Source: a virus (lineage: Duplodnaviria; Heunggongvirae; Uroviricota; Caudoviricetes). Taken from it: a DNA stretch of 64,000 bases. Every line of letters starts with the position of its first letter. Position 1 is the stretch's first letter. The position numbers and the translations under genes were made by a program. This document shows positions 27,916 through 64,000 of this stretch, in pieces. Below the pieces are notes generated by a model. The model made no database searches. It was not told the origin of the DNA and saw only the letters and a program-made list of their open reading frames with translations. The DNA lies in the IMG/VR virus record IMGVR_UViG_3300045988_147489, positions 20,848-84,847 of that record; one strand, 5' to 3'.

Positions 27916-28584
27916 ATGACCAAGATCTTTGTGGTTGGCGGCACAAAGGGCGGGCCTGGCAAATCCACCGTTGCCCAGCAAATTGCCGTTTGCCTGAAAG
28001 TCAAAAAGAAGAAGAAGGTTTATATTACCGATATAGATATTCAGCGCACGACAACGAGCTGGTGTGAAGACCGTCGACAGAACGAAGACCTTGAGCTGAT
28101 TCCTTTTGCATACGTTCAGGATGACATCATTAAGCACCTAAAATCGCTTCAGGGTAGAGCTGAGTTTGTAGTGGTAGATGCTGGTGGCTTCGACTCCGAA
28201 ATTCAGCGACAAGCGATGCTGATGGCTGACGTTATCATTATCCCGCTGCGTCCTAAGCGTCGTGATTTGAAATCTTTACGTGACATCGATCCTATTATCG
28301 ACAATGTTCGCAATGTAAACGATAAAGTGAAGGTCCGCGCGGTCATGAACCAGTGCCCGGCTTTGCCATCACAAGTGTCTCGCATTCTGGCGGCTAAAGA
28401 GATTGTTGAGACGTTTGGCATCGAGTCTGCGCCAGTCAATCTATATAACCGCAACGTCTATGATGATGCGGAAGAGTCTGGTCGCTCTATCTTTGAAATG
28501 ACCGGTAGCGAGCGCGACAAAAAGGCGGAAGCCGAGTTTGAAGAATTTGTAGATTATCTGTTGAGTCTGGAGGAAGAAGAATAA
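27916..28584 (+). CDS. parA: ParA-family partition ATPase
   Basis: N-terminal deviant Walker A GGTKGGPGKST; size and following small partner gene typical of type I partition loci. Confidence 0.8.
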   Translation: MTKIFVVGGTKGGPGKSTVAQQIAVCLKVKKKKKVYITDIDIQRTTTSWCEDRRQNEDLELIPFAYVQDDIIKHLKSLQGRAEFVVVDAGGFDSEIQRQAMLMADVIIIPLRPKRRDLKSLRDIDPIIDNVRNVNDKVKVRAVMNQCPALPSQVSRILAAKEIVETFGIESAPVNLYNRNVYDDAEESGRSIFEMTGSERDKKAEAEFEEFVDYLLSLEEEE

Positions 28585-28943
28585 TGTCCATGAAAATGGG
28601 TGACCTAGCAAAGCGCAAAGAGCCTGATGCACCGGCTAAGAACACAACTCCTTTGCGCCAACCAGTCAGACCACAGGGACGCCCGACTCGTGGCAAAGAG
28701 AAAATTAAAAGCCGCACAATGTCACTGGAGGACGAATACTTCGAACTGCTGGAGATGATGAAGTTCATCCCTCGCTTCGAGAAGTTCACTCGTTCTGACG
28801 TGATTCGAGCAGCCATTTTCCATCTGGCAGAGAAGTCACCGCAGGAAATCGAGGACATCGTGAAATTGAATGAGGCGATCACCGCTGCCGATGTCACGAT
28901 GCGTACCGATGAAATCAAACGAGAGTTGATGAAGAAAGGTTAA
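28584..28943 (+). CDS. small partition partner (ParB/ParG-like DNA-binding protein)
   Basis: start overlaps parA stop (TAATG); basic N-terminus; position. Confidence 0.5.
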   Translation: MSMKMGDLAKRKEPDAPAKNTTPLRQPVRPQGRPTRGKEKIKSRTMSLEDEYFELLEMMKFIPRFEKFTRSDVIRAAIFHLAEKSPQEIEDIVKLNEAITAADVTMRTDEIKRELMKKG

Positions 28944-28948
28944 AAATC

Positions 28949-28979
28949 ATGCATTGGCGCGTACATTGCGCCAATGCAT
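28949..28979. repeat. 12-bp inverted repeat ATGCATTGGCGC / GCGCCAATGCAT, possible centromere-like site or bidirectional terminator
   Basis: perfect palindromic arms with 7-nt spacer between convergent genes. Confidence 0.4.
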
Positions 28980-32170: not shown

Positions 32171-32251
32171 AAAATAAGCGTGGAGAACACCTCCACGCTT
32201 GATTCATTGGTGAAACAACTTTTCTTTTGCCAAACCACAAAAGAAAAACAC

Positions 32252-33433: not shown

Positions 33434-33508
33434 CAATCACCTTTAAAATAAGTAGATGATTACTTATCTTTCTGTGAGAATACTTTCATCTGTTAGCTAG
33501 GAGTTGGT

Positions 33509-34291: not shown

Positions 34292-34346
34292 TCTCTCCGC
34301 GCGTCGTTTTTTACGCAAATAACGATAGGTAAGTACAAGATTATTT

Positions 34347-34829
34347 ATGGCGGTAGTTGTGAAAGCTGATTTGTCAAAAATCCCCTCTATTTCAGGAAAT
34401 AATGGTTATTCACTTCGTTGTGAGGAAGTAAAGATAAACGGTGAGTCGGCATATTGCAGCTACTCCGTTTGCCAGCACACCATTCTTGCCTTCAAAGAAA
34501 ACCGTCTTCCTCGAACTTCATTCCAGTCGTGCGCAACCGCTATCAAAGCAGGCAAATGCAAGGCGTTAAAAATGATGGTTGAAGAGATTCGTAAAGGAGA
34601 ATCTCTGTATTTCGAAGATATGACCGCGCTCATTAAGGAGGTTGAAGAACGGAATAAACAAGCCAGAACTTTAAAACGAAAACGTGACAGTGTAACGATT
34701 AATAGCATGGTTAAGAAGAGCGCCACATCACAAACAGCGATCACTGACGTGTATGCGGCGTTGCTTGAAGAAACAACAAAAGAAACACATGAGCAAATCG
34801 ATCAACATATGGAGGCAAAACAACAATGA
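34347..34829 (+). CDS. hypothetical Cys-containing protein
   Basis: ORF from track; stop overlaps ligase start. Confidence 0.4.
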   Translation: MAVVVKADLSKIPSISGNNGYSLRCEEVKINGESAYCSYSVCQHTILAFKENRLPRTSFQSCATAIKAGKCKALKMMVEEIRKGESLYFEDMTALIKEVEERNKQARTLKRKRDSVTINSMVKKSATSQTAITDVYAALLEETTKETHEQIDQHMEAKQQ

Positions 34830-37737: not shown

Positions 37738-37812
37738 GATGGTGTAGCTCAGCGGTAGAGCAGTTGGCTGTTAACCAACTGGTCGGTGGTTCGAATCCAC
37801 CCACCATCGCCA
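37738..37812 (+). tRNA. tRNA-Asn (anticodon GTT)
   Basis: cloverleaf folded by hand: 7-bp acceptor GATGGTG/CACCATC, anticodon loop CTGTTAA, T-loop GGTTCGAATCC, CCA end. Confidence 0.8.
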
Positions 37813-37817
37813 ATTTA

Positions 37818-37904
37818 GGGGAGTTAGTCCGTAGAGGTAGCGGTGTAGACTGTAAATCTACTGTCATGGCGACTCGGGTGGTTCGACTCCATCACTCCCC
37901 ACCA
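37818..37904 (+). tRNA. tRNA-Tyr (anticodon GTA), long variable arm
   Basis: acceptor GGGGAGT/ACTCCCC, anticodon stem-loop GTAGA-CTGTAAA-TCTAC, T-loop GGTTCGACTCC, CCA end. Confidence 0.75.
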
Positions 37905-37908
37905 AATT

Positions 37909-37984
37909 GCCGGTTTAGCTCAGTTGGTAGAGCGCCTGCCTTGTAAGCAGGATGTCAGCGGTTCGAGTCCGTTAACCGGCACCA
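37909..37984 (+). tRNA. tRNA-Thr (anticodon TGT)
   Basis: acceptor GCCGGTT/AACCGGC, D-arm GCTCAGTTGGTAGAGC, anticodon loop CTTGTAA, T-loop, CCA end. Confidence 0.8.
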
Positions 37985-37992
37985 ACATAATA

Positions 37993-38073
37993 TTGAGAAC
38001 ATTGGCGTAACGGGTTCATATCCCAATTTATGAATATAATGTTGCGTTGCAGCGTGACAACCAGTGTTCTCAA
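37993..38073. repeat. long-range inverted repeat C immediately 3' of tRNA-Thr
   Basis: TTGAGAACATTGG ... CCAGTGTTCTCAA (1 mismatch). Confidence 0.5.
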
Positions 38074-38278
38074 CATTGTGGTGAATGCACAGGCTGATGT
38101 GCGACGTAGAAGCAAGCGGATGAACTGCCTGAAGGCCGCTAACGTAGGCAATGCCGGAGATCAGCACCGGCCATCACAATTTGGCTCTCTTGCAACAGCA
38201 TAACGCTGAAATACGTCCAACCTGGTGCGGTCTGATCACCCGCCGTTAGCTCCACGAAACGGAGCACACAACACAATT

Positions 38279-38365
38279 GGAGAGTAGGGAGCATGGTGCT
38301 CAAGCGGTCTTGAAAACCGTCCCATTGTGCAAACGATGATGGTTCGATTCCATTACTCTCCGCCA
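38279..38365 (+). tRNA. tRNA-Ser (anticodon TGA), long variable arm
   Basis: acceptor GGAGAGT/ACTCTCC, anticodon stem-loop GCGGT-CTTGAAA-ACCGT, T-loop GGTTCGATTCC, CCA end. Confidence 0.65.
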
Positions 38366-46876: not shown

Positions 46877-47080
46877 GTGCGTAAAGGATGTTTCGGCTCT
46901 CTTATCGCTGCTTCTGAAACTGGTAAGGCTTGTCTGGTGTGTCCAGACAAGCCCGATTGTCACCAATCAGCAAAAGAAGTTGCGATTTCGATGCATGGGA
47001 AGTTCGTAGGCTTCCCCAATGACAAAATCAAAAAAACCAGAAAGGTAAAAACACATGAAGGCACTGATGGTTCGAACTGA
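46877..47080 (+). CDS. small Cys-rich hypothetical protein
   Basis: 67-aa ORF with GTG start, overlaps polymerase start; weak. Confidence 0.2.
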   Translation: MRKGCFGSLIAASETGKACLVCPDKPDCHQSAKEVAISMHGKFVGFPNDKIKKTRKVKTHEGTDGSN

Positions 47081-50000
47081 CTTCTCACTTGGGGAGTCGG
47101 CTTTAAAAGCAGAAAACGCGGTGAAGATTGCCAGAGAAGCTGGCTACACCGCTGTAATTTCAGCAGATAGCATGAATATTGCGAGCGTTATTCCACTACA
47201 ACGTGCCGCTGGTGACGACATGGCGGTTATTTGTGGTGTGAAACTAAACATTGTTGATGATCCCACATACGAGCACCGGGTTAAACTTGCTAAAGAATCT
47301 ATGAGATGTATGGAATCATTAGAGCGGGGACGTAACTACTCGTTTACCGCTCTAATTAAAAATGAGCAAGGATATCGCGACATCTGCGAACTAATGACGG
47401 TGGCCAACACACGAGAACAGTTCTACTTTGTACCGCGTCTCTCGCTCGAACAGTTGGTTTCTACATATGCCAAAGGCAACATCATCCTGCTCACTTCCGA
47501 CATCGATAGCGTGTTCCAACGCAACGATTTTGCAAAAATCACAAGCTCACTGATTACAGCGGGCGGGAAAGACAACTTCTATAGCGTGGTTTATCCGCAC
47601 CCTACCCCATTCTACGACCAGATTAACGTCCGGGCGATGAAAGTCGCCAGCGCATTGAAAATAGAGCCAGTGGCGTTCTATCCCGCTTATTACGAATCGA
47701 TCGACGATGCAGACATTAAAGACATTGCGCACATGGTTACGAACAACATAAAAATCGACCAGCCGCATCGTCTGCGTATCCCCCACCAGCGAGATAACGC
47801 CATCAATGGTCGTCGCCATCTCCTTGAGGCGCTTAAAGCCTTCTCCATTCGCATGGATGTGCCGGTAACAGCTGCAATGGCCTCAACAACGCAGGATACC
47901 ATTATCGATGCCTGCACATGGCGCTGGCATGAATTGCCACCAGCACTGCCCAAGATGGCAGACGACGAACCTGCAACGCTGATGAAACTGGCTGTTGCAG
48001 GGCTGCGTAAACGTCTTACCACAAAAGAGTTTGGATACACACCACCTGCTTCTGAGAACAGGGTTTATGTTGAGCGGCTAAAGTACGAAATGGACACGCT
48101 GACTCGCCTGGGATTCTGTGGTTACTTCCTGATGGTGCGCGATCTGATGAATCATAGTCGTGAAACTGGCATTCCCGTTGGGCCTGGTCGTGGTTCCTCT
48201 GCCGGTTCTCTGGTGGCGTGGTGCATAGGCATAACCAACGTCGACCCAATCCGTCACGGTCTTCTGTTTGAGCGTTTCATCAACCCTGAGCGTCTCGACT
48301 TGCCGGATGCGGACTTGGACTTCAGCCAGGCACGTCGCCATGAGGTGATCGAGTATCTGAATGAACGCTACGGCGAAGATTACGTTGCAGGCATTCCGAA
48401 CTTCACCTACCTGGGCGCAGCCTCTGCACTACGTGACACCGCTCGTATTTATGGTGTGGAGTCCGCAGATATGGCGGTATCAAAAGAACTGAAGAACGTC
48501 GAGGATGATAGCCTTCCATTGGAAGAGCTGCGCGAACAACTGGCAAGTCTCGACAAATACGCAACAAAATATCCTGATGCATTCAATGCAGCCTGCAAGT
48601 TACAAAGCCTTATGCGTGGCTTTGGTAGACATGCGGCAGGGATGATCGTAGCAGGTGTTCCTCTGACAGAACGTACACCGGTTGAGCGCCGTGGTGACGC
48701 GCGTTGTATCGCATTTGACAAGCGTTACTGCGAGGCTATGGGCCTAATTAAGCTGGACGTACTTGGTCTGGCAACTCTCGATTTGCTCGATAGTGCAAAA
48801 CGCTACATAAAAGAGAACACAGGTGAAGATATCAATCTTGATGCCATTTCTCTTGAAGATCGCAAGGTGCTGGATGGTTTTGCTGCTGGGTACACTCAAG
48901 GTGTTTTCCAGCTTGAATCAGGCCCAATGCGCAAGCTGCTTAAAGATTTAGGTGGTGGAATTGAGCCAATGAGCTTTAAAACGGTTGTTGCTACGACTGC
49001 GCTCTTCCGGCCGGGGCCAATTCAGTCAGGCATGTTGGATGACTATGTTTCTGTAGCCAAAGGCTTTATGACGCCGGAATCATTACACCCCGTTCTTGAT
49101 GAACTTACCGCAGAAACAAATGGCGTGATTCTCTATCAGGAACAGACGATGAACGCGACTCGATTGCTTGCTGGCTTCACAATGGCTGAAGCTGACGGCG
49201 TTCGTAAAGCGATCGGCAAAAAAGACATGGAAAAAATGAAGAGCATGGGCGAGAAGTTCATCGTTCAGGCTCAAGCTGGCTGGATAGACGTTGAGCTGGA
49301 AGATGGCACTACACAGCGCATTCACCGTGCGGAACATTTTAAATGCGAAGACGGAACTCTGAAAACTGTCGAAGAGGCACTTGAGTACGGCGCAAAACTA
49401 CCTATAAACGCAGTACGCGTTACAGCGTCACATCCAGGGCTATCAGAGATGAAAGCGAAGGAGATCTGGACCGCATTCGAAAAGAATGGTGCCTACCAGT
49501 TCAACAAATCACACTCTGTTGCTTACTCCTTAATCAGTTATCAATCTATGTGGTTGAAAATTCATTATCCCGCGGAGTTCTTCGCTGCTGCTCTCACTAT
49601 TCTTGGCGAAGATAAACACCAGGGGCTGGTTAAAGATGCGCTGACCTATGGTATTCGCGTATTGCCACCAGACGTTAACGTGTCATCTAACCGAATCGAG
49701 ATCCGCACGCTTGAAGATGGCAGCCAGGTGCTGTATGCGCCCTTCTCTGCTGTGAAAGGGTGTTCTGAGAATGGCTGCCAAGCCATCATGAGAGCGCGAG
49801 AAAAAGTTGGCGGCAAATTCGAGTCACTGGCGCAATTCGAAGAAGCTGTCGAGAAACGTGCCTGTAATAGTCGAGTGCGCGAATCGCTGCAAAAAGTAGG
49901 GGCGTTTGCATCCATCGAGCCAGGCAGTCTGCCAGCAACTGATCCAGAGCGCCTACGCGACCAGGCTGAATTGATGGGAAACCTTGTCATAGACGCAGTT

Positions 50001-50573
50001 AAAGCCTCACGTCCGTTTGAGATGAACCCCAAACGTTCGGCTGAAATTAACGTACTCATGACGCGGATGGCGGCTGAAATGGGCTTAGGTGATGAACTAA
50101 TCCGCCCCAGCATTGGTATTAAGCCGAAAATCATGATCATTCTGGACAATGCGAACGGCAATGATGCTCGAACCGGTTACTTTATGGAGAACGGATACGA
50201 CGACTTTAAGGCCAAGCTATTGACGGCTGGAGATTTACGCATGGGCGATCTCTATGTCACAGGTGTTTGCAAGAAGGTTAAAGACAAAGAAAAAGACTAC
50301 ACCAAAGACGAGATCGGCCAGTTCACCGACTTTATGCGTGAAGAGATCAATCTGGTGCGTCCGACCTATGTGCTGACGTGTGGCAGCCGGGCAACTTCAT
50401 TGTTTAACAACAAAAACAAGCCATCCGATTTGGTCGGCAGGAAGGAGTATCTTCCAGACCTTGACGTTACTGTCTTTTACGGGTTTAACCCCAACATTCT
50501 TTACTTCAGACCTGAAGAGGGAGAACGACTAGAAGCGATATTAACCGACGTAGCAGAAACTATTAAGTCGTGA
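47055..50573 (+). CDS. DNA polymerase III alpha subunit (DnaE-like, with PHP domain)
   Basis: palm-domain signature GPGRGSSAGSLVAWCIGITNVDPIRHGLLFERFINPER...LPDADLDF; length 1172 aa. Confidence 0.85.
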   Translation: MKALMVRTDFSLGESALKAENAVKIAREAGYTAVISADSMNIASVIPLQRAAGDDMAVICGVKLNIVDDPTYEHRVKLAKESMRCMESLERGRNYSFTALIKNEQGYRDICELMTVANTREQFYFVPRLSLEQLVSTYAKGNIILLTSDIDSVFQRNDFAKITSSLITAGGKDNFYSVVYPHPTPFYDQINVRAMKVASALKIEPVAFYPAYYESIDDADIKDIAHMVTNNIKIDQPHRLRIPHQRDNAINGRRHLLEALKAFSIRMDVPVTAAMASTTQDTIIDACTWRWHELPPALPKMADDEPATLMKLAVAGLRKRLTTKEFGYTPPASENRVYVERLKYEMDTLTRLGFCGYFLMVRDLMNHSRETGIPVGPGRGSSAGSLVAWCIGITNVDPIRHGLLFERFINPERLDLPDADLDFSQARRHEVIEYLNERYGEDYVAGIPNFTYLGAASALRDTARIYGVESADMAVSKELKNVEDDSLPLEELREQLASLDKYATKYPDAFNAACKLQSLMRGFGRHAAGMIVAGVPLTERTPVERRGDARCIAFDKRYCEAMGLIKLDVLGLATLDLLDSAKRYIKENTGEDINLDAISLEDRKVLDGFAAGYTQGVFQLESGPMRKLLKDLGGGIEPMSFKTVVATTALFRPGPIQSGMLDDYVSVAKGFMTPESLHPVLDELTAETNGVILYQEQTMNATRLLAGFTMAEADGVRKAIGKKDMEKMKSMGEKFIVQAQAGWIDVELEDGTTQRIHRAEHFKCEDGTLKTVEEALEYGAKLPINAVRVTASHPGLSEMKAKEIWTAFEKNGAYQFNKSHSVAYSLISYQSMWLKIHYPAEFFAAALTILGEDKHQGLVKDALTYGIRVLPPDVNVSSNRIEIRTLEDGSQVLYAPFSAVKGCSENGCQAIMRAREKVGGKFESLAQFEEAVEKRACNSRVRESLQKVGAFASIEPGSLPATDPERLRDQAELMGNLVIDAVKASRPFEMNPKRSAEINVLMTRMAAEMGLGDELIRPSIGIKPKIMIILDNANGNDARTGYFMENGYDDFKAKLLTAGDLRMGDLYVTGVCKKVKDKEKDYTKDEIGQFTDFMREEINLVRPTYVLTCGSRATSLFNNKNKPSDLVGRKEYLPDLDVTVFYGFNPNILYFRPEEGERLEAILTDVAETIKS

Positions 50574-50580
50574 TCCAATA

Positions 50581-50610
50581 AACATGGCCTCTATGGCCAT
50601 GTTTTCTCTT
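50581..50610 (+). terminator. terminator-like hairpin
   Basis: AACATGGCC-TCTAT-GGCCATGTT then TTCTCTT. Confidence 0.5.
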
Positions 50611-50698
50611 ATCCCCTCATATCCCCTATCCTCGAACTCCTTGCCTTATCATCACAATGATATAATCAATATAAGATGATAAGTCAAAAGGAAAGCAC

Positions 50699-51130
50699 AT
50701 GATCACCGATATTTACGAGAAAATAATGTCTGATCTCGAGTTTGACCGAGACAATCTGGAGGAAGTCTGGCGTAGACAACCCCGCCTTTTAATGGAGTAT
50801 GGCTCAAAACTCGCTCATGCAGAAAGAAGTGTCGCAGAGGCAAAACTTAACCTTGAAGCTGTTGAAGCAAAGCTATACGACACAGAGCGTAAGAACTTGA
50901 GTATGAACGGTATTAAGTTCAACGAGTCTGTACTGGACGCTAAGGTTAAAACAAACCCACAGTATCTGTCTAAACGGCAGAAGTTGGATGAAGCACGGCA
51001 CATCGCAGACATATACAAACATGCTGTCGCCGCCTTTTCGCATCGCCGAGACATGATCGTTCAGGCGTCAAAGATGGCCATCGTTGAATTAGAGCGATTA
51101 GGCTCTGAACGCTTTATTACTCCCCGTTGA
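50699..51130 (+). CDS. hypothetical coiled-coil protein
   Basis: ORF with conserved RBS cassette. Confidence 0.45.
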   Translation: MITDIYEKIMSDLEFDRDNLEEVWRRQPRLLMEYGSKLAHAERSVAEAKLNLEAVEAKLYDTERKNLSMNGIKFNESVLDAKVKTNPQYLSKRQKLDEARHIADIYKHAVAAFSHRRDMIVQASKMAIVELERLGSERFITPR

Positions 51131-51247
51131 TTTTTGATAGATAATAAGTAAGTACTGATCTATCATTTAACAGCTCGAAAGAGCCACGAATGAACGAAAG
51201 CCCAACGCGCATAGCGCCATCGGCCAAATCACAACAAGGAGAAACAC

Positions 51248-52276
51248 ATGTCTAAGACATTACTTGATTTGCTTAACAAAACTCGTGAAGACATTGCCGC
51301 CAAACGTGGTAACAACGTTGATCTGACTCGCTTAAAAGACGGCGTCAACTATATCCGCATCTTCCCGAATAAAGACGACCCAAACGGTAAGTTCTTCCAG
51401 ACTTTCGGTATGCACTACGTTAAGTATCAGAACGAGGAAGGTAAAGAAGCAACCAACGCTTATATTTGTGAGCAACATACTCACGGTCGCGCTTGTCAGC
51501 TATGCGAAATGGTGATGGAAGGTCGCGCTCGTCACAAGGGTAACAAAGCAATGGAAGAACGCATCGGTCAAATGCGTGCCACTCCTCGCTACCTGGTCAA
51601 CGGCATTCTTTCTGCTCGTGAGGATTTCGCAGATGCTGAGAAATGCCAGTTAATCGAGCTGCCGTCTACTGTATTCGATGATATCTGCAAAGCAATCACC
51701 GAAGACATCGCTGATGATATCGGCAATCCACTGAGCAAAGAGGAAGGCTACGCATTCCTGATTAAACGTACTGGCTCTGGTCGCGATACCAAATATGACG
51801 TCTCGCCTAAGCGTAAAGTCTACAAAGGCGATATCGAAGATAAATTCTGGAATACCCAGCATGATCTGATCGCATACGCAAATCAGGCTGATGAAACTCG
51901 TCTTCTGTCGACAGTTCGCACTATGGGTCGTCTGATTGGCATCGCTGCACCAACTGCCGCAGCATCTGCACCAGCAATTTCCTCAACCGCGAAAACATCG
52001 GCTGCGGCACTACCTGGATTTGGCTCTGTCACTGGTCATACGGAGGGTGCGACTGCTGTAGCTACCGCTCATACCCCAGCTTCTGAACCAACCAGTCTGG
52101 TTGATGAAGAAATCCTCCGTGCCGTTGAAACTGAATTTAAACCAGAAGCAAGTCCCGCTGCCGTTGCAGTATCAGTCAAAGAGTCTGAAGCAGTCGCAGC
52201 GACATCTGTAGCAGCCGCATCTGCGACGGAAGATGAAGGTCTGGATGACCTACTGAGAGAGCTGGACTCTCTGTAA
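51248..52276 (+). CDS. ssDNA-binding protein (T4 gp32-like) with acidic C-terminal tail
   Basis: His/Cys cluster CEQHTHGRACQLCE in an N-terminal segment (IRIFPNKDDPNG) that resembles my recollection of the gp32 zinc-binding core; Ala-rich linker; acidic C-terminus EDEGLDDLLRELDSL. Confidence 0.55.
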   Translation: MSKTLLDLLNKTREDIAAKRGNNVDLTRLKDGVNYIRIFPNKDDPNGKFFQTFGMHYVKYQNEEGKEATNAYICEQHTHGRACQLCEMVMEGRARHKGNKAMEERIGQMRATPRYLVNGILSAREDFADAEKCQLIELPSTVFDDICKAITEDIADDIGNPLSKEEGYAFLIKRTGSGRDTKYDVSPKRKVYKGDIEDKFWNTQHDLIAYANQADETRLLSTVRTMGRLIGIAAPTAAASAPAISSTAKTSAAALPGFGSVTGHTEGATAVATAHTPASEPTSLVDEEILRAVETEFKPEASPAAVAVSVKESEAVAATSVAAASATEDEGLDDLLRELDSL

Positions 52277-52293
52277 TCCCATTACGTGACCAG

Positions 52294-52322
52294 TAAGGCG
52301 TCTACGGACGCCTTACTTTTTG
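52294..52322 (+). terminator. rho-independent terminator (member of a repeated terminator family)
   Basis: TAAGGCGTC-TACG-GACGCCTTA then CTTTTT. Confidence 0.7.
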
Positions 52323-52336
52323 GAAGGAATGTACCG

Positions 52337-53281
52337 GTGAATTATCTCTTCGTAGATGGCAATAGCCTGGGTTATTACCACCAACAATCTGACAAATTGC
52401 ACAACGGCGAAATGGAAGTACAGGCTGCTTTCGGCTTTGTTAAGAACGTCCGTCGTTATGCCTCCATCCTCCATGCCCGACCTATGATTCTTTGGGATGG
52501 ATTTAGTGACAAGCGTCGCGACTTTTACCCGGACTACAAAGCAAATCGCGACGACGATCCTGATATGAAAAAGATGAAGGAAGGCTTTGCTATCCAGAAG
52601 CCATACATCCTCAAAATGATGACCGCGCTTGGAGTTACCCAACTCATTGCAAAAGATGCAGAAGCGGATGATCTGGCCGGGCTGCTGGTAGCCAGCATTG
52701 CACCGCAGCCAATCGTTGAACACATCTATCTGTTAACAGGCGATAGCGACTGGCTTCAGTTAGTTCGCGAAAACGTAAGCTGGGTAAGCCTGCGCGAAGA
52801 CGCCAAAAACAAGCAGGTTAATTTTGAGCAATTTGCGGAGCTGACAGGATTCGCTACTCCTCGCGCATTTTTGGAAGCAAAAGCATTACAAGGCGATAAA
52901 TCGGACAACATTAGCGGTGTTGGTGGCATTGGTGCTGGCGGTGCGAAAGAGCTGCTGCATGAATGGGGAAGTGTCGCAACGATGGTACGCGGCATCAACG
53001 ACGGCTCAATCGTGGTTGACAAAGGACGCCATAAGACCGCCTTCAACAAACTAGCGAAGAATGCCTTCAACGAGAAAACAGGCTGTCGAATGCTCGAAGC
53101 GTTCAAGAGAAACATCACGCTAATGAACCTGATTGAGACGAAGTTTCCGCCTACCGAAATCGAAACAATCAAAGGCAATCGTGACGTGAAAGCATTCGAG
53201 CAACTGTGCTACGAGCTGAATTTCCGTTCGTTCCTTGAAGACCTTGAAGTGTTTGTTCTTCCATTCGAAAGGTATTGCTAA
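52337..53281 (+). CDS. 5'-3' exonuclease / flap endonuclease (FEN-like)
   Basis: N-terminal NYLFVDGNSLGYY, LTGDSD, helix-3-turn-helix GVGGIGAGGAKELL; GTG start placed after the terminator with GGAAGG RBS. Confidence 0.7.
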   Translation: MNYLFVDGNSLGYYHQQSDKLHNGEMEVQAAFGFVKNVRRYASILHARPMILWDGFSDKRRDFYPDYKANRDDDPDMKKMKEGFAIQKPYILKMMTALGVTQLIAKDAEADDLAGLLVASIAPQPIVEHIYLLTGDSDWLQLVRENVSWVSLREDAKNKQVNFEQFAELTGFATPRAFLEAKALQGDKSDNISGVGGIGAGGAKELLHEWGSVATMVRGINDGSIVVDKGRHKTAFNKLAKNAFNEKTGCRMLEAFKRNITLMNLIETKFPPTEIETIKGNRDVKAFEQLCYELNFRSFLEDLEVFVLPFERYC

Positions 53282-53547
53282 TGCTTAAATCGATTATCAA
53301 TGGCGCTACAACCACCCCTGCCCAACTGGCAAAAGAGATTGTCTTTTATCACGGTGAGTACGCTGTCATCGCACTGCCGTCAATTCTAGGCGCTGCCGGA
53401 ATGAAAGCGACAGATCGCGAGTTTGGATTAGTCAGCGAGCAGGTCGTAAAAATCCTCGCTCGTGTATCCAGACTCCTTAACCACGATGCGATTATATTCG
53501 ACGAATCCGCCGCTTTAAAACGAATCAACGAAACAAAAGGAGCCTGA
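53275..53547 (+). CDS. hypothetical small protein
   Basis: 90-aa ORF between exonuclease and recA-like gene. Confidence 0.35.
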   Translation: MLMLKSIINGATTTPAQLAKEIVFYHGEYAVIALPSILGAAGMKATDREFGLVSEQVVKILARVSRLLNHDAIIFDESAALKRINETKGA

Positions 53548-53549
53548 TC

Positions 53550-54623
53550 ATGGCAAAAGGAAAATCCGCACTGGCACTTGCTCTGAAAAAGAAAATCGGT
53601 AGCAACGACGAAATTCAGAAAGTAACTCATTGGATTGATACAGGCTTTCCACCGTTAAACAAAGCTATTTCTGGTCGTTACGATGGCGGCTTCCCATGTG
53701 GTCGTATCGTCGAAGTATTCGGTCCTCCAAGTGCAGGGAAAACGTTCCTTGCAACAGCAGCGATGATCTCCGCTCAAAAACAAGATGGTCTGGCGGTATT
53801 CCTCGATCATGAAAACAGTTTTGACGTTGGCCTGGCTGTAGCCAATGGCCTGAACGCAGATGAGGATGACGGTCAGTGGGTATACAAGCAGCCTGATACC
53901 TTCGAAGACTCTGTAGAGTTGATCGGCACAATTCTTAAATTGGTACGTGATGAAGAGCTTATTCCTGAATCAGCACCTATCTGTATCGTGGCTGACTCAC
54001 TTGCGTCTATGGTTCCGAACTCCAAAGCCGAGAAGTTCGAAAAGATGGCTGAAGGCACTGCCAAAGACAAAGATCAGCTAAACATGAACGACAATACGGC
54101 ACTGGCTCGTGCGACAAGTGCGAACTTCCCTACTCTGGCTTTGTGGGCACGCAAATACAACGCCTGCATCATCTTCTTGAATCAGGTTCGCACAAAAATC
54201 GGTGTAATGTTTGGCGACCCTACTACGTCTCCAGGTGGAGATTCACCGAAGTTCTACGCTTCTGTACGTATCCGTCTTGGTGCATCGGTGATGAAGGATG
54301 GTAAAGAGAAGATCGGCCAGGACGTAGGCGCAGAATGCATCAAAAACAAAGTTGCACCACCGTATGGCAAATGCACCTGGAAATTCTACTTCGATCCTAC
54401 TCGTGGCCTCGACGTTATCGAATCGCTCGTCGAGTACATGCTGGAAGAAGGATACCTGCCAAAGAACGCCAGCGGGCGAGTTGAAATTGGTGACAAGAAA
54501 TACACCAAATCGCAGATCGTCGAGATGTATCGGGAGAAGCCACTGGCTGAAATCATTGCGGCTTTGCAGGCAATCGACGACCGAAGAGCAAAAGACAACC
54601 CAACCGAGTCAGTAGAAGAGTAA
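53550..54623 (+). CDS. RecA-family recombinase
   Basis: GGFPCGRIVEVFGPPSAGKTFLATAAM parallels the RecA Walker A region; AAAGGAG RBS. Confidence 0.8.
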   Translation: MAKGKSALALALKKKIGSNDEIQKVTHWIDTGFPPLNKAISGRYDGGFPCGRIVEVFGPPSAGKTFLATAAMISAQKQDGLAVFLDHENSFDVGLAVANGLNADEDDGQWVYKQPDTFEDSVELIGTILKLVRDEELIPESAPICIVADSLASMVPNSKAEKFEKMAEGTAKDKDQLNMNDNTALARATSANFPTLALWARKYNACIIFLNQVRTKIGVMFGDPTTSPGGDSPKFYASVRIRLGASVMKDGKEKIGQDVGAECIKNKVAPPYGKCTWKFYFDPTRGLDVIESLVEYMLEEGYLPKNASGRVEIGDKKYTKSQIVEMYREKPLAEIIAALQAIDDRRAKDNPTESVEE

Positions 54624-56813: not shown

Positions 56814-57149
56814 ATGAAGACCATCCCATTCGCGCTGTTGTTTCTTTCTTCGATCGTTGTGGCCGACACCACTGTTTATCAGTGTGAAATGTCTGTAGCC
56901 GACGTTAAGAATGGCGCTCTTACCGACGTCATAAAAGCACCATATGGAGCGATGGTCGTAGACAGCGGCGACCAGTTCTATGTTGTGCGTGACGATCGAG
57001 TGTTGTCATCCCCATATCTCACAAATCGTAATGGCAAATTAACCGGCGTCGGAGAAGACCACTTCGTATACAACAAATACAAGGGCTTCTATGGCGTTCA
57101 CGCTTCTCAGCAAAGCTACCTTTTCGATGACTGCAAGGAGGTTGGGTAA
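56814..57149 (+). CDS. small secreted protein (signal peptide)
   Basis: N-terminal hydrophobic signal-like segment MKTIPFALLFLSSIVVA. Confidence 0.4.
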   Translation: MKTIPFALLFLSSIVVADTTVYQCEMSVADVKNGALTDVIKAPYGAMVVDSGDQFYVVRDDRVLSSPYLTNRNGKLTGVGEDHFVYNKYKGFYGVHASQQSYLFDDCKEVG

Positions 57150-57361
57150 TGGCATTAACACTGGCAGGTCTGGAAATCGAGAAAACAAGCGGCTACTGGC
57201 GTGCTAAGGGTTTCAAGCAGCATGGCATTCTTGAGCGTCTGGAACGTGAAGATGGGTATATCGTCCACCAGCGGCGTGAATGGCGTATGTACGATCCAGA
57301 AACAGGAAAACTGACTACAAAAGCCGGAACACTTTGGGGTCTGTTAAAGAAAATACACTAA
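57149..57361 (+). CDS. hypothetical small protein
   Basis: ORF overlapping previous stop. Confidence 0.35.
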   Translation: MALTLAGLEIEKTSGYWRAKGFKQHGILERLEREDGYIVHQRREWRMYDPETGKLTTKAGTLWGLLKKIH

Positions 57362-57407
57362 ATGCAAACTGACTGCGGCACGTTCCGCAGTCATATTTCA
57401 TAGTCGT

Positions 57408-57941
57408 CACCGCTGACAGCATACACAATCAACTACCGCTGATAGCATATCGAGAGTCTATCTCACCGCTCACAGCATACTTTACTCGATTTTTTACCGC
57501 TGACAGCATACTTAAGAAATTGCATGAATAATGTGTCCCGGTATGGGTATAACCAGAACAAAATTACCGCTGGCAGCATACGAATGTCTGACATATACCA
57601 TTAATTACCGCTGATAGCATATCCAAACAAAAATTCCTCAATAAAACACCGCTGACAGCATACGTTCTATCAGGGAGTAGCAGGCAATAAATGCCTTTCA
57701 CTACAAGCAATCAGCGCAATAGCAATAGAATGTTAGTGAGCGCAAACCTATATGGAATGCACTCTTCGAGGTTAGTAACCACTGGGGAGGTATGACAGAG
57801 CATTGAGTGGTGATAGATGATTTACCGCTCACAGCATACGTTCATCTCACTATACCGCTGGTAGCATATCTTTAACCGTTCACAGCATACTTTTCAGAAA
57901 AATAGCCGCTGATAGCATACATTTCACCGCTGACAGCATAT
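57408..57941 (+). repeat. iteron array downstream of repA (incA-like control locus): 12 copies of about 17-bp repeat, consensus (T/C)ACCGCTGACAGCATAC
   Basis: copies at about 57408, 57434, 57464, 57495, 57565, 57606, 57647, 57823, 57853, 57874, 57904, 57925; same orientation; two clusters separated by about 160 bp. Confidence 0.8.
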
Positions 57942-59035
57942 CAAAGCAGTTTGAGACTATTGGAAAGGATCTCAATCATCTTGATATTTTCAGGCGTCAA
58001 ATTCTGCGAAAGTTCGGTTATCTTGTTGATAATGTTCTGTTTGGCATCAATTTCCCCAGCTTTCTCATCTGGTTTTTTGGGTTCGATGTCTTCAGGTTTT
58101 GGCGGTGCGACTTTGAGTTTTGGATTGCGGCTGTGAATCTGGATATAGATCGACCGCCCACGCTTAATCTCGCTGTATTCGAGATAGCCCAAATCTTGGA
58201 GAGCTTTTAAGCCGTTACGTATAGTCTGATTCTGCGAGCTGACATTCCTGCTACTCAAATTGAGTCGCGCACGCAATCGAGCAAGCGATACCGGCGCAGG
58301 CTTGGTAGGAAGACTTTCGATGAAGGTGTACAGAGCCTGTGCTGTTTCTTTGCGTGGTAGCTTATTGATAACCTTTAACTGCAAAAGAACCTTATGGTCA
58401 AAGCGATATAGTTCGGCCAGCTTCGGTTCTGCATAGAACACCACCGTATCTTTCTGCTCGTTGTAGTCCACGCTATTGATGAGGTGCACCATCAGAAGCG
58501 AGATCTTGTTAGAGCCGTCGACGTTCTTTTCTTCATACGTTCTCTGGAAAGACAGAGTTGTACGCATGATCTTCAAAAGACTGTTTGTAAGCCGGTCGCG
58601 GAGTGTTTTGCGGATCTGTGACGATGGATAGCCACAAAACTTAGCAAATTTCGTGATGCTTAACTCGACACGACCGTTAGGTTCGCCGTATTCTGCCAGC
58701 GAACGCACAACGCCCACCCACGTTTTGAAATCATGATCCATGTCGAGACGAGGACCGGTTATCTTGATATCGGAATAGCCTTCAGAACGGGCTACTTCGA
58801 GCTGGACAAGCTCCTTTGAAGCATCAATCTCATTTGGCTTGTTACGTTTACTGTATTTTGTTCCCTTAAGCGTGGGGACGAACAACCCCAGTCGCATCAA
58901 CGCAATTGGTTGGACTGTATTGTTGCTATTAGGGACAAGTTCCCCTGTGTACAATTCAAGGGAACCTTCTTCAAAGTTGTCGATGTTATCTTCTACTTCT
59001 TTGTTATTTTTACCTTTTTTATTTTTTGTGGACAT
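57941..59035 (-). CDS. repA: plasmid replication initiator RepA (iteron-binding)
   Basis: gene bracketed by iterons; start set at the internal ATG (MSTKNKKG...) because the upstream extension is translated from iteron DNA; AAAGG RBS. Confidence 0.7.
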   Translation of the reverse strand: MSTKNKKGKNNKEVEDNIDNFEEGSLELYTGELVPNSNNTVQPIALMRLGLFVPTLKGTKYSKRNKPNEIDASKELVQLEVARSEGYSDIKITGPRLDMDHDFKTWVGVVRSLAEYGEPNGRVELSITKFAKFCGYPSSQIRKTLRDRLTNSLLKIMRTTLSFQRTYEEKNVDGSNKISLLMVHLINSVDYNEQKDTVVFYAEPKLAELYRFDHKVLLQLKVINKLPRKETAQALYTFIESLPTKPAPVSLARLRARLNLSSRNVSSQNQTIRNGLKALQDLGYLEYSEIKRGRSIYIQIHSRNPKLKVAPPKPEDIEPKKPDEKAGEIDAKQNIINKITELSQNLTPENIKMIEILSNSLKLL

Positions 59036-59044
59036 GTGGACACC

Positions 59045-59147
59045 TTTGTCATTCAACCGCTGACAGCATACTTGATTTGCCGCTGACAGAATACCAAAAA
59101 CAGTTGGCAGCATACGGTGAACCGCTGACAGACTATCAATTACCGCT
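59045..59147 (+). repeat. origin iterons upstream of repA (4 full copies plus one partial)
   Basis: AACCGCTGACAGCATAC, TGCCGCTGACAGAATAC, partial TTGGCAGCATAC, AACCGCTGACAGACTAT, TACCGCTGACAGCATAC. Confidence 0.8.
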
Positions 59148-59196
59148 GACAGCATACATGAACATGGCTTCAGACCAGTCGTGGCGCGGCTTACAG

Positions 59197-59273
59197 CGAT
59201 CGGGGATCTTATTTGATCTATACAAGGATCTATCTATGGATCTCTTTATTAGGATCTATCCTGTGGATATGTG
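59197..59273. promoter_or_regulatory. origin-associated GATC cluster (six sites, mostly in GGATCT heptamers) plus DnaA-box-like TGTGGATAT
   Basis: GATC at about 59197, 59205, 59216, 59227, 59239, 59253; TGTGGATAT at 59263-59271; layout resembles P1 oriR. Confidence 0.55.
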
Positions 59274-59356
59274 AATAATTAAAACAGGCATTTACTACCT
59301 TCGGCGCACCTGGTGGGTTATCGTTGCCTCGGCTAACAATCACAGAAAAATGACAT

Positions 59357-60001
59357 ATGGATCTAAAACGCACGCGCTGGGTTCGTCGTCTTGAAGACGG
59401 CTCCTACACTATCGAATCAAATTCCAACCTGAATAAGCAGAAGTTGCTTTGTGACATCTGCGGTATAGCGGCGAAGTGCCCGATCTACGAAACCAGAATT
59501 AAACTTGATAAGGCTGGTGTGAATTTTCATTTAAACAGTTGCATCAGGTACGTTCCATTACTCGCATTTCGTAAACCGATCATCGGATTGGATGCTCCCT
59601 ACTTCAACACACTCCGTTCAGGTGTGACGTGGCGAGATCGTTTATCACCAGACAAGCTGATTTGCCTCGTATCCGCAGACACAGGGAAAATCATCCGTTT
59701 TGGGAAAGTAGACAAGGTTTACTCAGGCCCAGTAGACGAAATGTTGCGGAAACACAGCCGGTTTAATCATCTCTGTATGGGTGGTGAGAAAATCGAGAAG
59801 GTAGAAGAAGTGATCCGCAAATCCTACGGACACTTTCTGACCAAAGATAGCCTGCTCACCGCAATCTACATCAGACATGTAAAACGTGAGTTCGACCTCG
59901 AATACCACAGCGAAGAAGAGCTTAACCTTGTTGACCCACGTCCAAAAGCTGGCGTCATAAGCATAAACGCAGCGCGTAAAAAGCCCACTGACGCGCTGTA
60001 A
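59357..60001 (+). CDS. hypothetical protein
   Basis: ORF from track; followed by hairpin GGCGTAGAT...ATCTACGCC at about 60020-60040. Confidence 0.45.
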   Translation: MDLKRTRWVRRLEDGSYTIESNSNLNKQKLLCDICGIAAKCPIYETRIKLDKAGVNFHLNSCIRYVPLLAFRKPIIGLDAPYFNTLRSGVTWRDRLSPDKLICLVSADTGKIIRFGKVDKVYSGPVDEMLRKHSRFNHLCMGGEKIEKVEEVIRKSYGHFLTKDSLLTAIYIRHVKREFDLEYHSEEELNLVDPRPKAGVISINAARKKPTDAL

Positions 60002-61385: not shown

Positions 61386-61574
61386 AAAAGACTTGAACGA
61401 GGCCAGACGGTGATGTTTCACAAGCCCTACCCGCCACAAGGAAATCCCGTAGCGTTTTATCTTGGAAGGTTAACCAGAAAAGGCGTATTGAGGCGCAGAT
61501 CCTTCCCGGCGCATACGGAGTTCAGATTGAAAGAAGGTCAAAAGCTAACACACGGTATCAAAGGTGTTATATGA
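61386..61574 (+). CDS. small basic hypothetical protein
   Basis: 63-aa ORF between the nuclease and ATPase genes. Confidence 0.25.
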   Translation, partial: KRLERGQTVMFHKPYPPQGNPVAFYLGRLTRKGVLRRRSFPAHTEFRLKEGQKLTHGIKGVI

Positions 61575-63121
61575 AGTTTTTAAAGCTCCAGGTTGAGAAT
61601 TTTATGGCTATCGCCAGCGCGGAGGTCGAGTTAGATCAGCGTGGTTTAGTGCTCATTCAGGGTGTTAATAGTGATGATAGTTCCGCATCAAGTAATGGCT
61701 CTGGAAAGTCAACGCTAATGAATAGCCTGATGTGGTGTCTTTATGGCGAAACAGCTCATGGTGTGAAGGGTGACGATGTGTTGTCTACCGACCATGAAAA
61801 GAACTGTCGTGTTGCAGTAACCATCGAGGATGAAGGCAAGAGATATGCGATCATTCGTCACCGTAAACACAAAGAGTTCAAAAATCGGCTTATCGTTCGT
61901 GGTGAAGACGGCGATATGACGAAAGGCAAAGATGCGCTGACGCAAGAGTTCGTCGAGCGTCTGATCGGTGCATCTAAAGAGGTTTTCATGGCTTCCATCT
62001 ATGCGAGCCAAGAAGCTATGCCAGATTTACCTGGAATGTCCGACAAAAACCTCAAAACCATCGTAGAAGAAGCCGCTGGCGTTGACAGACTGACACGCGC
62101 CTACGCTATTGCTCGTGAGCGAGCTAATGCAGCTGCCGCACGTATGGATGTGGTTAAAACCAAATTGGAGTCGACAATCTCGACCATTGAGGCAACACAG
62201 TCAGAAATTGAGTCAGCGAAAGCCTCCTCTGAATCATGGGAGCAAGAGCGTTCTAAACGTTATGACGATGCCCTGGCTGGGCTGGCCAGTGCCGAAGTTG
62301 AGTTAACGGAAGTTGAACTTGAGATCCGCACTCTTCCCGAACAGATCCGTGATACCGAGAAGGCAATCGAAAGTGAGCGCAAAAAGTTAGCCTCAAAAGA
62401 AGAACATGACGCCAAGTTGCTCAAAGTTCGTGGTGCGATAACTGATATTCGGGCAAGCATCAAAGCTACAGAAAATAGTCAGGCTGATGCAATGAACCGC
62501 GCGCGTAATTTTAAGACTAAAGCAGAAGAGGTTGGTACTAAAGTGGGATCACCATGCCCTACTTGTGGCAAAGCCTACTGCGAAGAAGATCTATCAACGG
62601 TGAAGGAGAATTTCATTGAACAAGCACGTCAGGAAATTGGTCAGGCGAAGACACTTGCAGAGGCAATGGCTAAACACAAAACGAATCTTGAGAAAGCGTT
62701 AAGCATTGAGTCTGCCCTTGTTAAAACGACACCTGATGTAACGGCTATCATTGCCCGGATTGAAGAGCTTACGAAACAACTCTCATCTTTGCGTCATCGT
62801 GAGAAGGAGGTTGTTGCTATTGAGTCTCTTGTGACTCGTGCTCGTACTGAGGTCGATCGTATATCAAAAGAGATTAATCCGTTTATTGCTCTTATCGCCA
62901 GACACGAAGATAACCTGGTATCCAGTAAGTCTACCTTCAAGTCCTTAAAAGATGAGTTGAAGGCTATTCAGGAACAAACGTTGCTATTGGAAAAAGCTCG
63001 TCAGGTCTACTCTCCTGCCGGGGTGCGTTCTCATATTTTGACGTCTGTTACGCCTTTCCTGAATACACGCACTGCCGAGTATCTCAATACGTTGTCTGAC
63101 GGGAATATTACTGCTGAGTGA
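61571..63121 (+). pseudogene. SbcC/Rad50-like ATPase truncated by IS insertion (N-terminal ATPase head, coiled coil, zinc hook present; C-terminal ATPase half missing)
   Basis: Walker A NGSGKSTLMNSL; CPTCGK zinc-hook-like CxxC mid-protein; ORF stops at the TGA formed by the first bases of the IS (63119-63121); no signature motif, Walker B or D-loop before the stop. Confidence 0.6.
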
Positions 63122-63190
63122 AGTGGTTTACTGAATTTGGCCACCTGAACAGAGGTGATATGCTCACCTCAGAACAACACAGGTGCCATA

Positions 63191-64000
<810 letters not shown>

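Follow-up and report, generated by a model that had tools for sequence, protein, structure and literature searches.

The question raised by this locus was whether an initiator gene enclosed by two sets of short repeats in a tailed phage genome represents the replicon through which that phage is maintained as a plasmid, and how closely such a replicon is related to that of P1. The original prediction placed a P1-style iteron replicon at positions 57408-59273 of the analyzed stretch of DNA, 64,000 nucleotides long and referred to here as the window. Those limits were right to within a few bases, other than that a second DnaA box runs to 59278 (Table 1). Based on the analyses below, we consider it very probable that the locus serves to maintain a prophage as a plasmid and that its carrier is an SSU5-like siphovirus, a phage-plasmid of the pECOH89 / p09EL50 type; the replicon is homologous to oriR-repA-incA of P1 and to RepFIB. 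The prediction of a P1-style replicon was borne out by the homology of RepA to P1 RepA, by an origin core that aligns with P1 oriR and by a shared layout.

Table 1. Features of the replicon and the candidate partition locus, in window coordinates.
Feature	Position	Strand	Description
Candidate partition locus	27916..28943	+	ParA-like ATPase (222 aa) and small downstream 119-aa ORF
Bidirectional terminator-like hairpin	57370..57393	.	9-bp stem with 6 GC pairs, both strands (terminator scan)
Distal control cluster, 7 iterons	57403..57662	-	Same orientation as origin iterons
Conserved non-iteron block, 58 bp	57732..57789	-	TCCCCAGTGGTTACTAACCT-N19-AGGTTTGCGCTCACTAAC on - strand
Proximal control cluster, 5 iterons	57818..57940	-	Counterpart of P1 incA
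repA, 364-aa initiator	57941..59035	-	P1 RepA / RepFIB branch of Rep3 superfamily, predicted iteron-binding
Origin iterons, 5 copies	59050..59156	-	Counterpart of P1 incC
GC-rich spacer, 59% GC	59157..59197	-	Contains GCCGCGCCACG-N-CTGG; same length and nearly same sequence as P1 oriR spacer
AT-rich region, 6 GATC sites	59198..59256	-	Five sites in (T)AGATCC-type heptamers
Two tandem DnaA boxes	59262..59278	-	ATATCCACA at 59262-59270; TTATTCACA at 59270-59278

The initiator gene lies on the minus strand, reading from 59035 to 57941 as had been proposed. Its product matched the Rep3 winged-helix (WH1) domain, Pfam PF01051 (Rep3_N), with an E-value of 3.9e-9 and a score of 37.5 bits (cut-off 22.4). 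The original prediction had staked itself on RepA not belonging to a family outside the iteron binders, and it stands on this point because the family of RepA, Rep3, is one that binds iterons. BLASTP aligned the protein with P1 RepA at 46% identity over 278 aa (E 3e-86), and tblastn with RepA returned matches in P1, P7 and other P1-like phages. Slightly closer than P1 RepA were the RepA proteins of RepFIB replicons (IncFI/F-type; E. coli, Salmonella pSLT, Klebsiella IncFIB), with about 50-51% identity (51% for those of E. coli and Salmonella, about 50% for those found on thousands of F-type plasmids). Database annotators name the protein 'RepFIB replication protein A' or 'RepB family', and the PHROG label 'replication helicase' was judged a misnomer for a Rep3-type initiator. 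Searches of PDB sequences and of NCBIfam with RepA gave no match. RepA has a linker rich in Pro, Glu and Lys, and a short tail at its C-terminus, residues 310-364 (55 aa). RepFIB RepA has in common with it a Pro/Glu-rich linker and a short tail, the latter present in SSU5 as well, whereas P1 RepA is 78 aa shorter and lacks the 55-aa tail.

The repeats number 17, share an iteron core of 16 bp, which reads ACCGCTGACAGCATAC on the plus strand, and run in a single orientation throughout. Matches to the pattern CCGCTGACAGCATA with up to three mismatches numbered 25 over the 64 kb of the window, where 4.8 were expected and shuffled sequences gave 12 at most, and 17 of the 25 were the same-strand copies within 57410-59156. 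The origin set, described initially as about 4.5 copies, contains five, with core starts at 59057, 59080, 59101, 59122 and 59143 (spacings of 23, 21, 21 and 21 bp); the third and middle copy is degenerate, with three mismatches, and is degenerate in relatives as well. Downstream of repA, the 12 predicted iterons in two clusters were recovered as seven distal and five proximal copies. The distal core starts are 57410, 57436, 57466, 57497, 57567, 57608 and 57649 (26, 30, 31, 70, 41 and 41 bp apart) and the proximal ones 57825, 57855, 57876, 57906 and 57927 (30, 21, 30 and 21 bp apart). The last proximal copy ends at 57940 and the repA stop codon occupies 57941-57943; an iteron at 0 to +6 from the end of repA is common to P1, RepFIB, SSU5 and all close relatives. 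An inverted iteron-like site within repA (58689-58702, three mismatches) was rejected as a chance occurrence, as it was not kept in four relatives despite identical protein sequence.

Upstream of the origin iterons, the predicted clustering of GATC sites was evident, the six sites at 59198-59256 forming the densest cluster in the window (the runner-up had 3 per 70 bp). The probability of such a cluster is 4e-7 for a given 60-bp stretch and about 0.03 over the 64-kb scan. The GATC sites were kept in five relatives. We presume that this AT-rich region is the unwinding region and the target of Dam and SeqA. A DnaA-box-like site had also been foreseen beside it; the site is present, although as two tandem boxes and not one, and the tandem boxes are likewise kept in relatives. 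Across E. coli, Klebsiella, Cronobacter and Rosenbergiella, sites were kept while the spacers between them drifted.

Comparison with P1, whose features were taken from its GenBank annotation, revealed the same order of parts: two tandem DnaA boxes, GATC heptamers, a GC-rich spacer of about 40 bp, five iterons, repA and a control array starting from the stop codon. The P1 oriR core (DnaA boxes, GATC heptamers and GC spacer) aligned with the origin core at 67% nucleotide identity. Within this alignment the 18-bp annotated oriR DnaA site corresponded to the tandem boxes, and five annotated oriR Dam sites together with one heptamer reading GGTC corresponded one-to-one to the six GATC sites, so that P1 has five intact sites and the replicon here six. 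The origin iterons are similarly spaced (22/21/21/21 bp in P1 versus 23/21/21/21), as are the control arrays (about 21, 31 and 41 bp in P1). Judged from the sequences, the resemblance to P1 is one of real homology that goes beyond a similar layout.

The iteron of P1, however, is unrelated (GATGTGTGCTGGAGGGAAA versus TATGCTGTCAGCGGT here), as is reflected in the best repeated 12-mers, GATGTGTGCTGG in P1 and TATGCTGTCAGC here. These comparisons indicate that the replicon is a P1 relative of a predicted incompatibility type other than the IncY of P1. The control array of P1 has nine iterons (three direct, six inverted), in contrast to the two clusters found here, with 12 iterons in total and every one of them direct. 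P1 also has a second set of DnaA boxes between its iterons and repA, with about 56-75 nt between the last iteron and the ATG; here that interval is 14 nt and no DnaA box was found in it (59036-59049). An interval this short means that the repA promoter must overlap the origin iterons, a placement made by geometry only. A strict sigma-70 scan for this promoter found none on the minus strand; the best match in a relaxed scan, TTGATA-N19-TATGCT, fell within the origin iteron set and was not kept in relatives.

RepFIB likewise has five iterons in its origin, together with clustered GATC sites and a DnaA box, and further iterons downstream that begin at the repA stop codon. It differs in that the RepFIB locus examined has an iteron of the CATAAACTGTAG type and about six downstream iterons, mostly inverted, versus 12 direct copies here; its origin core is 58% similar to the core here versus 67% for P1, and its carrier is a conjugative F plasmid and not a phage-plasmid. 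The replicons of SSU5, pHCM2 and pLF82 (Cyrano) occupy the same genomic slot, with flanking ORFs of 214 and 70 aa that are 86% and 94% identical to those here, and their DnaA-box and GATC core could be aligned (66-69%). Their RepA is of the same family but only 46-48% identical (see also PMC3999498), their iteron, CCACTGTRGAGA, is unrelated, and SSU5 itself has two tandem origin-like modules with control iterons in mixed orientation. The difference from the SSU5 replicon amounts to the replacement of a specificity module within one phage backbone. Five origin iterons about 21 bp apart, repA and a control array from the stop codon were nevertheless common to P1, RepFIB, SSU5 and four close relatives.

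The SSU5-like phage-plasmids of the IncpKPHS1 type in Klebsiella (pKPHS1 and pJN2-26) and Cronobacter pCsaC105731a belong to the same replicon subtype. Their RepA proteins are 85-89% identical to that here, and they agree with it in the core of the iteron, the layout of the origin and the conserved block. The control iterons number about nine in pJN2-26 and 11 in the Cronobacter plasmid, versus 12 here; the distal cluster is present in the Cronobacter relative and absent from pJN2-26. For the Klebsiella group, 'four copies of a conserved iteron' have been reported downstream of repA (PMC6735626); that description is limited to four downstream iterons and includes no origin set and no core.

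The replicon was detected in 119 of 5,426 complete E. coli genomes. All 184 matches in these genomes were on plasmids and none was chromosomal, which supported the prediction that the phage is maintained as a plasmid. A near-identical replicon is present in at least 120 plasmids, including pECOH89; the survey of these plasmids covered the length of the control region, which was constant at 651 nt. The control region and the 3' end of repA (57340-57990) were 98.9% identical to NC_023916.1, a plasmid of E. coli H89, and the whole locus was 99.7-99.8% identical to p2009EL-2050 and pECAZ162_2. The same replicon is carried by PhiR41_1, the record of a lysogenising phage deposited as a complete phage genome, and a scan of genome contigs added just two further loci, in Klebsiella sp. 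and Rosenbergiella. In the literature, plasmids similar to pECOH89 appear as phage-like plasmids of the RepFIB (Rep3) type that are analogous to P1 (PMC4270462), and the SSU5 supercommunity is typed mostly as IncFIB (PMC7969092). We read the PlasmidFinder name 'IncFIB(H89-PhagePlasmid)' as denoting the pECOH89-type replicon found here. The replicon type is thus ordinary and already catalogued, RepFIB-type being its name in the literature. A preprint on heteroresistance that reports RepA copy-up mutations was set aside, as it deals with an unrelated 49-kb phage-plasmid. The phage-plasmid group of E. coli, Shigella and Klebsiella is clinically common, and some of its members carry CTX-M-15.

These distributions also bear on whether the module might instead be the lytic (vegetative) replication origin of the phage, with no part in plasmid maintenance. 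The element is a phage, since a near-identical plasmid carries tail, capsid and terminase genes, and a DnaB-like helicase, a primase and Pol III alpha are encoded in the window close to the replicon. However, its initiator and origin are homologous to the P1 plasmid replicon oriR/repA and to the RepFIB of non-phage F plasmids, its large array of negative-control iterons fits the limitation of copy number and not runaway lytic replication, and the E. coli genomes with the replicon hold it on stably carried plasmids. We therefore consider a lytic origin very improbable.

The partition genes that had been predicted to accompany the replicon were found in part. A ParA-like ATPase (Pfam MipZ, AAA_31, CbiA and ParA; PHROG 164 'ParA-like partition protein', E 4e-51) followed by a small ORF is the only partition candidate in the window, but some 29 kb separate it from the replicon, in contrast to the adjacent position in P1, where parABS is immediately downstream of incA. 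The genes next to the control array here are small convergent ORFs, and the terminator-like hairpin, which also came up as an inverted repeat, marks the outer, left-hand end of the replicon, with the convergent 70-aa ORF (57149-57361, plus strand) on one side of it and the array on the other. No centromere, iteron-like or other repeat array was found beside the ParA-like operon. This gives some reason to ask whether all 12 repeats downstream of repA, or the distal seven at any rate, serve as a partition centromere or another cis site and not a copy-control and incompatibility array, all the more as the distal cluster is 155 bp from the proximal one, is absent from some relatives and has wider spacings (41, 41 and 70 bp) than the origin set. 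Yet all 12 copies share the 16-bp core of the origin iterons, which makes RepA their expected binding protein. The start of the array at the stop codon and its spacings of 21, 31 and 41 bp match P1 incA, and PhiR41_1, a complete phage genome as deposited, has lost three distal copies (57409-57495). A centromere here thus appears no more probable than a lytic origin, and the array is better read as the counterpart of incA.

A last explanation, that the repeats are chance or annotation-type artefacts (att sites, as in the Klebsiella phage pJN2-26 record that labels two iterons attL and attR, or a coding repeat, as in the RefSeq model of a 404-aa 'RepB' ORF in which RepA is extended through the origin iterons to ATG 59155), has next to no likelihood, given an enrichment far above all shuffles with 17 copies and not two, an element that is never chromosomal, and an ATG at 59035 that is kept with its Shine-Dalgarno sequence (AAGGTG, 59046-59041) in all five relatives while the upstream extension is not. 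Judging by this conservation, the RefSeq RepA model is over-long and ATG 59035 is the true start.

Returning to the maintenance replicon, its control region holds one element that neither P1 nor RepFIB has, the conserved block in the 155-bp gap that separates the proximal and distal clusters. The block is kept in the Cronobacter and Klebsiella relatives, in which its flanks do not align, and a search of all plasmids found it confined to this replicon group. It forms an imperfect inverted repeat and contains two copies of the motif YACTAAC, spaced by about 41 bp. Examined as RNA, it gave a consensus fold of -5.9 kcal/mol with no covariation and no Rfam match; as single-stranded DNA it gave no significant fold (z-score -1.4), and it contains no conserved ORF. 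By eye, it was not convincing as a promoter, and a Tus/Ter site was rejected on account of about four mismatches to the core. A scan of 57200-59500 at E<=1 matched no Rfam family, and hence there was no sign of an antisense-RNA control system. We speculate, while regarding the idea as unlikely, that the control region is something other than a simple incA and that the block may bind a phage or host regulator that modulates RepA pairing or titration, coupling copy control to the state of lysogeny or lysis.

By analogy with P1 and other iteron replicons, for which autorepression, titration and handcuffing are the general means of control (PMC3401445), a sequence of events can be proposed. RepA monomers would bind the five origin iterons and, together with host DnaA at the tandem boxes, would open the adjacent AT-rich region of GATC heptamers, upon which the host replisome would load. 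The GATC sites would need Dam methylation and, being hemimethylated after firing, would be bound by SeqA, so that re-initiation would be delayed. RepA bound at the origin would repress its own promoter, located within the origin iterons. The 12 downstream iterons would restrain copy number through the titration of RepA and through 'handcuffing', in which RepA pairs them with the origin iterons in cis and in trans, and would also serve as an incompatibility determinant. From these parallels we infer that the replicon replicates autonomously, at low copy number, with incompatibility and a dependence on Dam and SeqA. We also infer that its unrelated iteron would give it a specificity separate from those of P1, RepFIB and SSU5/pLF82.

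Conceptually, these findings add nothing to the control of iteron replication. What they provide is a map at single-base level that places all 17 iterons, the actual start of repA, the DnaA boxes and the GATC heptamers; no map of this kind was found in the literature searched for this group. Such a map could be used to correct the RefSeq RepA model, to design mini-replicons and incompatibility-based curing tools, and to predict compatibility with P1, F-type RepFIB and SSU5/pLF82-type elements. For the biology of these phages, the findings mean that a phage of the 100-kb class very probably persists as a plasmid by way of an iteron replicon of the P1/RepFIB family.

A search of the window with the motif CCGCTGACAGCATA, allowing up to three mismatches, returned 25 matches compared with 4.8 ± 2.0 expected, a number reached in no shuffle, and 17 of these lay between 57410 and 59156, all on the same strand. 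Alignment of the 17 copies revealed a 16-bp conserved core, ACCGCTGACAGCATAC, in a ~21-bp unit. These copies form an origin set, whose third iteron is degenerate in the window and in relatives alike, and a control array of 12 iterons, all direct, in two clusters. All of the elements listed in the original prediction, which had proposed a P1-style iteron replicon at 57408-59273, were recovered where it had placed them. An inverted iteron-like sequence within repA (58689-58702, minus strand; 3 mismatches, 14/15 match to the 57568-57582 variant) was rejected as a real site and attributed to chance, as its nucleotides are not conserved in relatives though the protein is identical.

Replicon sites in the window (repA is on the minus strand)
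Feature	Number	Coordinates	Position	Remarks
Origin iterons	5	59050-59156	upstream of repA	spacing 23/21/21/21 bp
Proximal control iterons	5	57818-57940	downstream of repA	last ends 1 base before stop codon
Distal control iterons	7	57403-57662	downstream of repA	155-bp gap from proximal cluster
GATC sites	6	59198-59256		densest cluster in window; ~0.03 expected window-wide
Tandem DnaA boxes	2	59262-59278		

The longest repA ORF encodes 404 residues (RefSeq 'RepB family' model WP_001348683.1), with an ATG within the outermost origin iteron and a reading frame that runs through all five iterons (window 59036-59155). This upstream extension is not conserved in relatives. By contrast, E. coli, Klebsiella and Cronobacter all keep the ATG at 59035 and the AAGGTG that lies five bases 5' of it; Rosenbergiella has TTG in place of the ATG. 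Based on the conservation of this start and not of the extension, the real product is probably the 364-residue protein beginning at 59035, the length annotated in Escherichia phage PhiR41_1, and the RefSeq start is probably wrong. RepA matched Pfam Rep3_N (WH1) above the curated threshold, and shared 46% identity with P1 RepA across 278 residues (E 3e-86) and 51% with RepA from the RepFIB replicons of E. coli and Salmonella F-type plasmids. A Pro/Glu/Lys-rich linker and short tail follow its P1-homologous part; the RepFIB and SSU5 proteins share this tail, whereas P1 RepA does not have it. PHROG 775, which holds both P1 RepA and the window RepA, is labelled 'replication helicase', an annotation error given that this family is one of Rep3-type initiators. 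In Klebsiella phage pJN2-26 (MZ779062.1), two RepA iterons (1378-1397 and 2648-2667) are mislabelled attR and attL.

In the GenBank annotation of P1, our reference for the origin, the order in the repA sense is an 18-bp DnaA site, five Dam sites, a ~40-bp spacer and five iterons (incC, with PrepA), followed by repA, the nine iterons of incA, of which the first overlaps the repA stop codon, and parA-parB-parS. The order of parts in the window was identical and the distances nearly so. From the DnaA boxes through the end of the GC-rich spacer the alignment with P1 showed 67% identity, similar to the 74-75% found for this segment between the window and its Klebsiella and Cronobacter relatives. 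Every P1 heptamer has a counterpart, and the window has six GATC sites to the five of P1 because a P1 heptamer reading GGTC is GATC in the window. GC content was also close in the AT-rich part (window 35%, P1 38%) and the spacer (59% and 62%). The iteron sequence, in contrast, is unrelated to that of P1. Because the core aligns and the iterons do not, we interpret the host-factor part of the origin as conserved and the initiator-specific part as replaced; with unrelated iterons, the incompatibility specificity is predicted to differ from that of P1. Other differences were that P1 has 3 direct and 6 inverted control iterons, that DnaA boxes lie in the interval from the iterons to repA in P1 but not in the window, and that the window's sole partition-like genes (a ParA-like ATPase and a 119-aa ORF, 27916-28943) lie ~29 kb from the replicon. 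Directly after this operon is a perfect 12-bp inverted repeat, ATGCATTGGCGC / GCGCCAATGCAT, with a 7-nt loop (28949-28979), which could be a terminator, a candidate centromere or an operator site. Together, the RepA homology, the alignable origin core and the matching order of parts support the P1-type layout that had been proposed.

The same site scan, applied to P1, two RepFIB plasmids, SSU5 and four close relatives, identified a common plan of five origin iterons spaced ~21 bp apart, a GATC cluster ~40 bp past them and, after repA, an iteron positioned 0 to +6 relative to the stop codon. Beyond that iteron, the number and orientation of control iterons vary: 1 direct and 5 inverted copies were counted in one RepFIB locus, whereas every copy is direct in the E. 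coli, Klebsiella, Cronobacter and Rosenbergiella sub-lineage to which the window belongs (RepA 78-89% identical). The E. coli control region is very stable, with at least 120 plasmids spanning the 651-nt query at unchanged length; in NZ_CP023851.1 it is 26 bp longer. PhiR41_1 (PV340561.1) lacks exactly 87 bp (57409-57495), or three control iterons, leaving 9 rather than 12, a loss that recombination between two identical copies could explain. A 58-bp non-iteron block in the gap between the control clusters (57732-57789, minus strand), TCCCCAGTGGTTACTAACCT-N19-AGGTTTGCGCTCACTAAC, is conserved in the window and its Cronobacter and Klebsiella relatives; it occurred nowhere else, being absent from P1, RepFIB and SSU5, and had no Rfam match, significant structure or conserved ORF. 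In SSU5 (JQ965645.1, ~770-1380) repA is preceded by two tandem origin-like modules. The distal module retains intact DnaA boxes along with six GATC heptamers, aligns with the window core and is followed by five iterons; in the proximal module, which is followed by five further iterons, the core has decayed (GATC to GAACC/GACCC). The flanking genes of SSU5 and the window are 86-94% identical, whereas the two RepA proteins share 46-48% identity and their iterons are unrelated. On sequence grounds, the replicon specificity module has been swapped within a conserved slot.

Among the matches listed, ~109-kb non-mobilizable E. coli/Shigella plasmids (e.g., pECAZ162_2 and the O104:H4 2009EL-2050 plasmid) were 99.0-99.8% identical to the 2.1-kb locus and PhiR41_1 99.1%, and pECOH89 (NC_023916.1) was 98.9% identical to the control region. 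The near-identical plasmid is annotated with portal, capsid, tape-measure, tail-fibre and terminase genes and many replication genes. Based on these matches and phage genes, we class the element with the pECOH89 type of SSU5-like siphovirus phage-plasmids. The replicon was found at 184 places in E. coli, all plasmid-borne, in 119 of 5,426 complete genomes. The window also encodes (30830-36148 and 47055-54623) a DnaB-like helicase, primase, ATP-dependent ligase, Pol III alpha, SSB-like protein, 5'-3' exonuclease and RecA-like protein, a replication/recombination set that presumably serves lytic replication from another origin. Four tRNA genes (Asn-GTT, Tyr-GTA, Thr-TGT, Ser-TGA) are clustered at 37738-38365; P1 has tRNA-Asn and tRNA-Thr genes too. 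At 61571-63493, an SbcC/AAA_23-like ATPase ORF stops at 63121 (516 aa, compared with 638 aa in the near-identical plasmid) and is followed at 63155 by an IS3-family transposase OrfA (HTH_Tnp_1), which we take to be IS911-like; the gene was probably truncated by IS insertion.

That the replicon is instead the lytic origin is unlikely given its homology to plasmid replicons and its large negative-control iteron array. The downstream array is also unlikely to be a centromere, as it and the origin iterons have an identical core and it matches incA in both position and spacing. Chance is ruled out by the enrichment over shuffles, and att sites or a coding repeat are excluded by the non-conserved RepA extension and a locus always on plasmids.

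The observation is confirmed and the interpretation as a P1-type replicon supported; both the family of replicons and this particular member have already been catalogued. Databases name the protein 'RepB family' or 'RepFIB replication protein A', and 'IncFIB(H89-PhagePlasmid)' is a typing label in routine use. In a study from 2014, pECOH89-like plasmids were placed among RepFIB (Rep3) phage-like plasmids and likened to P1 (PMC4270462), the SSU5 supercommunity was typed mostly IncFIB (PMC7969092), and four downstream iterons were described in the Klebsiella counterpart (PMC6735626). A complete base-level map of the replicon was not found in the literature searched; ours is straightforward annotation.

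Beyond the homologies, the conserved site architecture and the exclusively plasmid location that we observed, the mechanism proposed here is drawn from P1 and from iteron plasmids generally (PMC3401445 for the latter). RepA monomers and DnaA would open the methylated AT-rich heptamer region, and after firing the hemimethylated origin would be sequestered by SeqA. The Dam and SeqA details for P1 come from work by Abeles, Austin, Brendler and Chattoraj. pECOH89 was reported to encode dam (PMC3999498), and the near-identical plasmid carries, outside the window, a putative phage N6-adenine methyltransferase gene by annotation. The repA promoter would be repressed by RepA itself. Geometry argues for this step: with just 14 nt from the last iteron to the repA ATG, any promoter must overlap the iteron set or lie upstream of it, although a promoter scan found no convincing -35/-10 pair. 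The downstream array would cap copy number through titration and handcuffing, and would confer incompatibility.
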